The notes below the pieces were generated by a model. The model was not told where the DNA came from. It saw nothing but the letters and a program-made list of their open reading frames with translations, and did not search any database. 22,892 bases of DNA from contig JBDHAC010000065.1 of assembly GCA_039588275.1 (NCBI GenBank), positions 1 through 22,892 of the forward strand, given 5' to 3'. Made by a program: the position numbers and the translations under genes. Below, piece by piece: positions 20,078 through 21,948 of the stretch (position 1 is its first letter; the number at the start of each line of letters is the position of its first letter). Source of the stretch: Gemmatimonadota bacterium (lineage in GTDB: Bacteria; Gemmatimonadota; Gemmatimonadetes; Palauibacterales; Palauibacteraceae).

Positions 20078-20698
20078 ATGCCCGAGCTGTACGCACAATT
20101 AGCCGAAGAATGCCCAAAGTACGAAGCCGCATGCGCGAAGTGGACCGAACTCGACGCGCAGTTACGTGAGGTCGAGCAGGAACGCGAAGACCTCCAGCGG
20201 CAACTGTACTCACCTGCGGGAATGGCTGCCGTCGCCGAACGCGCCGCCACCACCGTCTACGGCGCAGCGGGCCAAGGCGGAGTCGCACAGGTCATCCAAG
20301 ATGTTCGTACCGAGCCGCAGCACAACCTGAGCGAACTGCGCAAACGTGAGGAGCTTTTACGGGCGGCCCTGGGGCTGGCCGAGCGGGAACTCCAAGCGAC
20401 GCGTGCCGAAGCCTCACGGGACCTATGTTTGAAGCGGCGGCCGAAGTACCTGAAGCTGGTCGCTGACGCGCGAACCGCTTTCGATGCCGCACTGACGGCC
20501 GCGCTCGAGGCCGAGCGATACATGCGTGAGGTCGAGGATACGGACGCGCGTTGGAATTCCATCGAACTAATTCCGGTTTTCGCGTGGCGCCGCATCGCCG
20601 GTCGGCTCGAACGTTTTAATGACGAAATCAACCACGACGTTGGCCCCGCCCTGGATGACCTAGAGAAACCCAAGAAGTCGCGCCGGAGGTCCAAGTGA
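20078..20698 (+). CDS. Coiled-coil hypothetical protein (206 aa)
   Basis: Heptad-rich segments (WTELDAQLREVEQEREDLQRQL; LSELRKREELLRAALGLAERELQ) and a basic tail KPKKSRRRSK. GTGA overlap with the next gene. Confidence 0.8.
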   Translation: MPELYAQLAEECPKYEAACAKWTELDAQLREVEQEREDLQRQLYSPAGMAAVAERAATTVYGAAGQGGVAQVIQDVRTEPQHNLSELRKREELLRAALGLAERELQATRAEASRDLCLKRRPKYLKLVADARTAFDAALTAALEAERYMREVEDTDARWNSIELIPVFAWRRIAGRLERFNDEINHDVGPALDDLEKPKKSRRRSK

Positions 20699-21948
20699 GC
20701 GCCCGTCGCGAGGTCCGCACGCTCGCCATGGGCCTAGAGGTTCGCGGTAGTGGCCGGTCGAAGTCCATCCGGGGGCACGCCGCCGTATTCGACTCGGAAG
20801 CGGACATCGGCCCGTTCCGTGAACTCATCAAACCCGGCGCATTCGCGGACGCGATCGCGACCGACGACGTACGGGCGCTGTTCAACCACGATTCCAACCA
20901 TGTACTCGGCCGGACCACGTCGGGCACGCTCCGGCTATCAGAAGACGCGACCGGCCTGCTAGCCGATACCCGGCCACCGAAGACGACAACGGCATCCGAC
21001 CTCATGCTCTCGATCGAGCGCGGTGACGTGTCGCAGATGAGCTTTTCGTTTCAGGTGCTGGAGGCGGACGAGGAATGGAAAGAAGACGGCGGCAAGCCGC
21101 TCCGAATCATCAACCGGATCGACCGGTTGTGGGACATCTCGCCCGTGACGTTCCCCGCGTACGAAGGGACCGACGTTGGCGTCCGGGCTGAGCAACGGGT
21201 AGCGACACGCGCCATCCAAAAGGCCCGCGCGATCTGCAAGCGGCGCAACGGTGGCAATACAGGTTGCTCGGTCTCGCTCGCTCGCCGAAAGCTACAGGTG
21301 GTCCAAGCTCGGGCGCGTGAAGCTCCTGCCCCAGCTCGCCCGCAACCCGCACCTAGACGACGCAGACCCACGCCACTGGGTAAGAAGGCCACACGACAGA
21401 GCATCCGCCGTGTACGCGATGCCGCGTATTTCGTCCAACCCGGCGCCGCCACGGCTTGGCGCGACCTGCAAAAAACCTCGATTCACGAAGCCGGACACGC
21501 ACTCGCCGGGCTACTCCTGGGGAACCGGATTAGCGGCATAGAGCTCTACATGCATCCACGTACATCGTCGCCCGGCTGGTCGGAATACAAGCGATCGAGC
21601 GGCGATGTCCGCTTCGGCCGGGACACGGTCTTGTGCCCGCAAATCCTGGTGGCTGGGTTCTCGGCTGCGGTGCAGTCCGGGTTCACCCACCGCCAGTCGC
21701 TTGACGGATGCACGGGCGACTTTGAACAGATCGAGCGAAACGCGGGGCCGCCCTCGCCCGAGTGGAAAGTCTGGACCGAGGAAACACACGAACTCCTCAA
21801 GCCCTACATGTACATCGCGGAGGCCCTTGCGCGCCGACTCCTCGAGACGGGCTCGCTGACAGGTGATGAAGTCCACCGGTTCGCGTACAGGCACGGGGAC
21901 CACCGGTTCCGCAAGATCCTCGACGACCACGGGCGACACGCGGCATGA
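20695..21948 (+). CDS. HK97-family prohead protease fused to an FtsH/peptidase M41-like zinc metallopeptidase domain
   Basis: N-terminal half: IRGHAAVFDS, FRELIKPGAF, LFNHD (His), QMSFSF (Ser), WDISPVTFPAY. C-terminal half: HEAGHA, ILVAGFSA, GCTGDFEQI, EALARRLLETGSLTGDEV. Confidence 0.88.
   Translation: MSARREVRTLAMGLEVRGSGRSKSIRGHAAVFDSEADIGPFRELIKPGAFADAIATDDVRALFNHDSNHVLGRTTSGTLRLSEDATGLLADTRPPKTTTASDLMLSIERGDVSQMSFSFQVLEADEEWKEDGGKPLRIINRIDRLWDISPVTFPAYEGTDVGVRAEQRVATRAIQKARAICKRRNGGNTGCSVSLARRKLQVVQARAREAPAPARPQPAPRRRRPTPLGKKATRQSIRRVRDAAYFVQPGAATAWRDLQKTSIHEAGHALAGLLLGNRISGIELYMHPRTSSPGWSEYKRSSGDVRFGRDTVLCPQILVAGFSAAVQSGFTHRQSLDGCTGDFEQIERNAGPPSPEWKVWTEETHELLKPYMYIAEALARRLLETGSLTGDEVHRFAYRHGDHRFRKILDDHGRHAA

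Follow-up and report, generated by a model that had tools for sequence, protein, structure and literature searches.

A gene of a Gemmatimonadota bacterium encodes, in one open frame, an HK97-type prohead serine protease (S78), a basic linker and a zinc peptidase-like domain that has the fold of FtsH (M41) and lacks its AAA domain. This fusion is real and recurrent. Its architecture has apparently not been described so far and apparently marks a variant of PICI-like satellites. The window, by which the whole stretch of DNA analysed is meant (22,892 nucleotides), is the entire 22.9-kb contig C65 of genome G000, which is 86% complete. Genomes of the same class have proteins that carry the source label Gemmatimonadaceae or Gemmatimonadota.

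The fusion gene and its domains

By ORF reading of the window, the fusion gene (20695..21948, + strand) is a single open frame of 417 aa, which bears out the two-protease fusion put forward in a preliminary description of this DNA. Its GTG start shares GTGA with the stop of the upstream ORF and its stop shares ATGA with the ATG of the following HNH gene; these overlaps at both ends suggest translational coupling with the neighbours. Stops are present in both other forward frames across the linker. The S78 part has a GC3 of 0.80 and the M41-like domain one of 0.78, against 0.61 for the linker, and the codon bias of both peptidase domains is normal.

The HK97-type protease that had been recognized in the N-terminal part is confirmed as Peptidase_S78 (20752..21195, +; aa 20-167; Pfam E 1.9e-40, phrog_80 E 2.6e-54). 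H65 (20887-20889, +) and S116 (21040-21042, +), which we take to be the active-site His and Ser that are catalytic in HK97 gp4, are invariant in all four S78 fusions that were found. HK97 gp4 also carries a C-terminal encapsidation signal. With its conserved His and Ser the domain resembles the free-standing head proteases (PF04586, phrog_80), to which it is up to 59% identical; unlike these, the fusion is not placed between portal and capsid genes, adds a second protease domain, and occurs in a genome without a detected capsid gene. Each of the four S78 halves is nearer to free-standing S78 proteins than to the other S78 halves, and in a 42-row tree they are spread among the free-standing proteases. 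A single clade of the four is not rejected in this tree (p-AU 0.21), and repeated capture of S78 is therefore not proven.

The linker (21196..21444, +; about aa 168-250) is rich in Arg, Ala and Pro and is predicted to form helices flanking a disordered stretch. Among the homologs the spacer from the PAY motif to HExxH varies from 67 to 107 aa, and the linker sequences of the fusions are unrelated to each other. The segment SLARRKLQVV, which had been read as the usual end of a prohead protease, scores no better than composition shuffles (p 0.84), and that reading is not statistically supported; a protease-tail motif is not significant in 5 of 6 linkers. The likeness of the window's linker to capsid N-termini is borderline, with 16 of 200 shuffles scoring as high.

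The C-terminal domain (21445..21948, +) is an M41/FtsH-fold domain without AAA domain, as indicated by profile, AlphaFold model and fold matches. The initial assignment to an AAA-less, FtsH/M41-like HEXXH domain has thus held: there is HEAGH (aa 264-268; 21484-21498, +), D342 (21718-21720, +) is aligned to FtsH as the predicted third zinc ligand, and the best fold matches are FtsH and FtsHi. H264, E265, H268, G321 and D342 are, together with H65 and S116, invariant across the four S78 fusions, the M41-like domains of which share only 17-27% identity. Eight aligned M41-like domains from satellites are 17-32% identical, with HExxH in seven and the nearby Asp in all eight. Of the two Pfam families expected beforehand, Peptidase_S78 is clearly reached (139 bits, cut-off 21), whereas Peptidase_M41 (PF01434) is not (15.9 bits against a cut-off of 29.9); around HEAGH the matches are M50B-like (E 1.8e-5) and M41 (E 0.012), both under cut-off. 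A 20-sequence profile of the domain and its relatives, on the other hand, matches FtsH structures with an E of 6e-18, the alignment bringing HExxH, the AG helix and the Asp into register with FtsH. In the AlphaFold model the mean pLDDT of 10-residue blocks is 83-97 over aa 251-280 and 311-410, and 39-72 over aa 281-310. All four PDB matches of the model at E <= 0.001 are FtsH or FtsHi, with a TM of 0.56 to the isolated domain 2di4; among viral proteins, the fold matches comprise head proteases and a single free-standing M41 protein.

The likeness to FtsH thus extends over the HExxH helix, the AG helix, the region of the Asp ligand and the C-terminal helices. The AAA and transmembrane domains of full FtsH are absent from the fusion, the N-terminal half of which is S78 by Pfam; about 30 residues that follow the Asp helix in FtsH are missing as well, and the Glu of the FtsH motif GGRxAE is Ala in the window.

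M41-like domains also occur widely as small stand-alone proteins. The ESM Atlas returned clusters named "Peptidase family M41 domain" at 0.94, PF01434 being present in 55% of the members of the first cluster, while the C-terminal 161 aa had only 10 matches among 1.84 billion representatives: apart from the protein itself, these were eight small proteins of the M41-like kind, at 29-38% identity, and a single repeat protein that is unrelated. PDB entry 5IQJ, a 134-aa Vibrio protein with no assigned function, is matched both by the M41-like profile (E 5e-4) and in fold, and may represent a stand-alone member of solved structure. Outside satellites, in genomes G172 (L006 1027-1971) and G280 (L003 1108-2121), M41-like domains have different N-terminal extensions, one of which is Nudix-like by eye.

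Recurrence of the fusion

The S78-M41-like architecture is rare but recurrent. A profile of two fusions matched 10 of 401 genomes of the phylum, of which three have an in-frame M41-like domain: the window's genome, G052 (383 aa) and G391, where the order S49-S78-M41-like is found in 698 aa. A fourth fusion, in metagenome locus L138, was the one real match out of nine in a motif-spacing scan. A search with the domain profile brought to light an M41-like domain that is joined to a head protease of the other class, S49: this fusion is intact on contig C259 of G630 (443 aa), has one frameshift, inside the M41-like domain, in G302, and is present as a broken second copy on contig C2 of G630. In three related elements (G188, G484 and G069) the M41-like domain is not fused to a head protease. 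Those free S78 genes in G359, G005, G374 and G393 whose surroundings were readable adjoin capsid and/or portal genes and carry no M41-like domain.

The rarity that had been supposed from the start agrees with the protein-database searches, in which HExxH occurs in 0 of 119 non-self homologs among the matches listed, and in 0 of 7 in a second search. These negatives are weak, because the fusion of G052, though present in the collection, could not be returned, hidden as it is under an unrelated 39-aa cluster representative. DNA-pattern scans, confined to strict motifs within a spacing window of 30 nt, gave no real match among five in genome_contigs and none among three from the six viral scans. 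Neither the metagenomes nor 50,697 phage records yielded a near relative of the C-terminal domain, and no additional S78 fusion came from 301 and 400 further, overlapping genomes. The supposition that the architecture had not been annotated also proved sound, the homolog in G052 carrying just the name "HK97 family phage prohead protease". No paper linking an M41-like peptidase to a phage, prophage or satellite was found in the literature searched, which leaves out most subscription journals; in two satellite papers that use the word, "metallopeptidase" denotes an integration site.

By ORF reading, the M41-like genes of G285, G280, G334, G770 and G796 lie outside satellite-type elements, so the domain is not satellite-specific. 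In a free tree of M41-like domains all 10 satellite rows fall on one side together with eight others (SH-aLRT 90, long branches). An AU rejection of one clade for the satellite domains (p 4e-5) was set aside, as the near-identical satellite copy L123 had been placed outside the group, and so had rows of unstated context.

Carrier elements and the island of the window

Judged by their gene content, the other carriers of the M41-like domain are PICI-like satellites, a status assigned here by the component list in excerpts of the SatelliteFinder preprint and the Dokland review. In G052 the order is tRNA-Ser, integrase, HTH, DnaB-N/AAA_25, HTH, P27 small terminase, a 192-aa gene, a coiled-coil gene, the fusion, genes of 122 and 185 aa, and a tape-measure-like gene. 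G302 has integrase, AlpA (a regulator), AAA_25, HTH, a lambda-like small terminase, coiled coil and fusion, and G391 has integrase, a P4-type primase, HTH, small terminase, coiled coil, fusion and phrog_5707. The same plan is followed in G630 (C259) and L138, while G188, G069 and G484 have primase, small terminase, coiled coil and an M41-like gene without protease partner. A primase or helicase is present in all eight related elements. Integrase matches were obtained in G052, G302, G391, G069 and G484, with long ORFs in G052 and G302 and a remnant for the window, and none in the stretches read of G188, G630 (C259) and L138. The small terminase is recognized by family in G052, G302, G391, G484 and L138 and by tblastn in G188 and G069, and its type tracks that of the protease: P27/phrog_83 goes with S78 (G052, G391, L138) and lambda-like phrog_57 with S49 in G302.

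The fuller relatives have integrase, a putative regulator, primase or helicase and small terminase in the order of PICIs (SaPI, EcCICFT073; SatelliteFinder model), and HNH and serine protease are listed as occasional PICI genes in the excerpts available. They differ from PICIs in the host phylum, Gemmatimonadota, and in the putative capsid-morphogenesis slot, which holds the coiled-coil gene and the protease-M41-like fusion instead of a capsid-like protein; moreover, two elements have tape-measure-like genes, which the SatelliteFinder model, as excerpted, forbids. Such genes were seen at the end of capsid-less satellite-like elements at L058 11443-13698, L122 11740-13620 and L126 11048-14674, and could hint at tail hijacking. 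In G862 (L126 9322-10170) an S78 gene without M41-like domain precedes a tape-measure-like gene in a genome without PF05065, possibly another satellite variant.

The carrier elements apparently make no heads themselves. The capsid family PF05065, looked for in the eight carrier genomes (L138 left out), was not found in G000, G052, G302, G391, G188, G069 and G484, and the lone match in G630 belongs to a complete lambda-like prophage on another contig. This prophage (G630:C300), with a protease-capsid fusion at L161 9465-11363, is a candidate helper of the G630 satellite. No portal or large terminase was found in the carriers by a narrow test, in which PF04860 missed even the lambda-type portal of the G630 prophage. 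The elements accordingly share head protease and HNH with cf-PICIs, as far as partial accounts of these go, and differ from them in having no capsid in any carrier and, by these limited tests, no portal or large terminase. The marine VEIME satellites (PMC9618062) likewise have no major capsid genes, and their module 2 encodes HNH and serine proteases; the word "peptidase" is absent from their main text in the form available.

In all nine elements read, a coiled-coil gene of 194-244 aa adjoins the M41-like gene. That of the window (20078..20698, +; 206 aa) is all-helical. Its nearest named Atlas cluster is Psu (0.90, low recognition score), which serves as a lead only: PF07455 is absent from the 25 of 35 Pfam families listed for eight coiled-coil genes, fold searches returned generic coiled coils, and an identity with Psu or Sid of P4-like satellites is not established by Atlas, Pfam or fold searches. 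Position alone makes both this gene and the fusion candidate capsid-morphogenesis genes.

The window's own island is less complete. Its left att repeat of 19 bp (16773..16791, +) has an exact copy on contig C9 of G000 (85915-85933), which adjoins nrdJ and a frameshifted integrase remnant without its first 153 residues. In congener G401 the empty site between ispG and nrdJ, genes that adjoin each other in G401 and G402, holds the repeat in single copy. The site is palindromic, is not a tRNA and marks a tyrosine-integrase island; it is also seen at L041 4183 and L042 13501. Rfam gave nothing at the site or in the region, and ARAGORN nothing in the region. Since the facing ends of C65 and C9 lie in a repeated gene family that is tandem in G401, we infer one island of >10 kb that is interrupted by a gap in the assembly. 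No primase was found in the island by tblastn with the genes of relatives (in a genome 86% complete, with one gap in the island), and no small terminase in G000 with those of three relatives. With PICIs the island has in common the 19-bp repeat and the truncated integrase, the contig link being inferred. A small Arc/ribbon-helix-helix-like ORF (19699..19890, +; weak match), similar to one that precedes the coiled-coil gene in G484, may be a regulator. Taking the broken integrase together with the undetected primase and small terminase, the fusion is an intact gene in a decayed satellite, and the window's copy may no longer be mobile.

Directly behind the fusion lies an HNH endonuclease gene (21945..22289, +; 114 aa; phrog_144, E 1e-26) of a kind found beside the packaging genes of cos phages. 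An ORF that is excisionase-like by position (18311..18847, -) matches in its 3' part (18330-18535) a small gene on G401:C64 that sits directly before a full integrase. Island cargo comprises a TonB C-terminal protein (17232-17975, -), of which the genome has several paralogs, and an ORF of 165 aa (18830-19327, +) that contains Cys, looks secreted and matches no family. A short GC-rich repeat (22586-22655), which in G000, G401 and G280 recurs upstream of numerous genes, with up to six copies in a single 16-kb locus, looks REP-like or regulatory. Tandem lipoprotein-like genes that end in a DVDGDG(x)4D repeat domain were seen at 22691-22892 (-) and at L046 11300-15000, and several contigs of G000 break within this family. 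A second small integrase-HTH-helicase-like element is situated beside a tRNA cluster at G000:C70 15942-19048.

Possible roles of the fusion

The M41-like domain is joined to S49 (G630, G302) or to S49 and S78 together (G391), and the feature common to its partners is therefore the head-protease function rather than the fold. Behind the fusion of G391 comes phrog_5707, the gene that succeeds the major capsid gene in full prophages of G849 and G630; the unfused domain of G069 has an N-terminal helix like those of capsid proteins (0 of 200 shuffles as high). The peptidase hence seems to sit in the place of the capsid gene. This slot serves capsid-morphogenesis interference in PICIs, according to an excerpt of the SatelliteFinder preprint, and head proteases are described, in the accounts at hand, as entering procapsids and cleaving scaffold or capsid protein. 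The nature of the partner, the position in the capsid slot and the apparent want of own heads together lead us to propose, tentatively, that the fusion is a satellite protein of head interference, in which the head protease brings the zinc peptidase into the procapsids of a helper and thereby disturbs head maturation. That the other carriers are capsid-less, and that the domain is joined to two unrelated classes of head protease, gives context to the helper procapsids that the preliminary description had suggested as a target. The fusion would be made after induction of the helper, its S78 half would be co-assembled into helper procapsids as maturation proteases are, and the zinc peptidase carried in with it would cut helper head proteins in a zinc-dependent, ATP-independent way, the scaffold or delta domain, the helper protease or the portal being candidate substrates. 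Either helper maturation would be disturbed or satellite packaging favoured.

Several points stand against head interference. Three of the nine elements (G188, G484, G069) have no head protease, G069 (L055 8178-8972) has EEAAH instead of HExxH and lacks the first His, the linker is without a significant protease-tail motif, and the window's element is decayed. Wrecking helper heads would, furthermore, cost the satellite its vehicle, unless the cut is selective.

A wider view, put forward with still more reserve, is that these are undescribed satellites of Gemmatimonadota in which a captured head module might have had its capsid gene replaced by an ATP-independent, FtsH-derived zinc peptidase, the head protease (S78, S49 or both) being swapped according to the helper as an address label into its procapsids. 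If true, this would be a proteolytic hijack or sabotage of phage heads, an enzymatic strategy unlike that of the capsid-redirection proteins Sid, CpmB and Ccm of satellites, which are scaffolds or capsid-like proteins in the accounts available. It would also provide a first role for the widespread small, AAA-less M41-like family, for which the sources searched give no function.

It is unlikely, though it deserves consideration, that the two domains merely became neighbours in a polyprotein through loss of a stop, the S78 part maturing heads and perhaps releasing itself while the M41-like peptidase has an unrelated job, such as cleavage of a repressor or action as virion cargo in the next host. 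The unfused M41-like genes of G188 and G484, each next to the same coiled-coil gene, would fit such an origin, as would linkers of unrelated sequence and 67-107 aa in length, and the wide occurrence of small stand-alone members. Chance joining of neighbours does not readily explain why every satellite fusion read has a head protease or a capsid-like N-terminus as partner, and why none of the nine elements has a fusion to the small terminase or coiled-coil neighbour.

Rather unlikely, too, is abortive infection triggered by capsids, in which the capsid of an infecting phage, while it assembles, would be sensed by the head-protease half, and the zinc peptidase thereby turned on an essential host protein. 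Lit of E. coli K-12, a protease whose function is linked to a capsid protein of a phage in that it is activated by the T4 capsid's Gol peptide, offers a precedent in the partial accounts consulted, in which defence genes are also common in satellites; but Lit is free-standing and cuts EF-Tu, and no homology to the fusion is claimed. An ORF that stays intact in an island without mobility is what a gene useful to the host might look like. Against this, the gene belongs to a packaging operon behind the small terminase and not to the accessory cargo, the fusion and four homologs have no match in PADLOC (2023 library), and the catalytic residues of S78 are retained, for which a pure sensor would have no use. 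Lit has an HExxH motif as well and is located in e14.

A further reading is that the M41-like domain is non-catalytic, or has become a remnant without function as its satellites decay. The truncated, frameshifted integrase, the broken copies in G302 and G630:C2, the lost His of G069 and the Ala in the window's GGRxAE motif all point that way. Retention of HExxH and Asp at so low an identity, together with the normal codon bias of both domains, makes a relic improbable.

An assembly artefact joining two genes of a metagenome-assembled genome is highly improbable: independent sequence does cover only 20560-21228 (one contig of run X1, share 0.20, the only one used; 0 differences), ending short of the linker, and both database records of the protein are on a contig of the window's size, but the stop or frameshift that the preliminary description had considered for the linker of homologs is not seen, three independent assemblies keeping the identical domain order in one frame.
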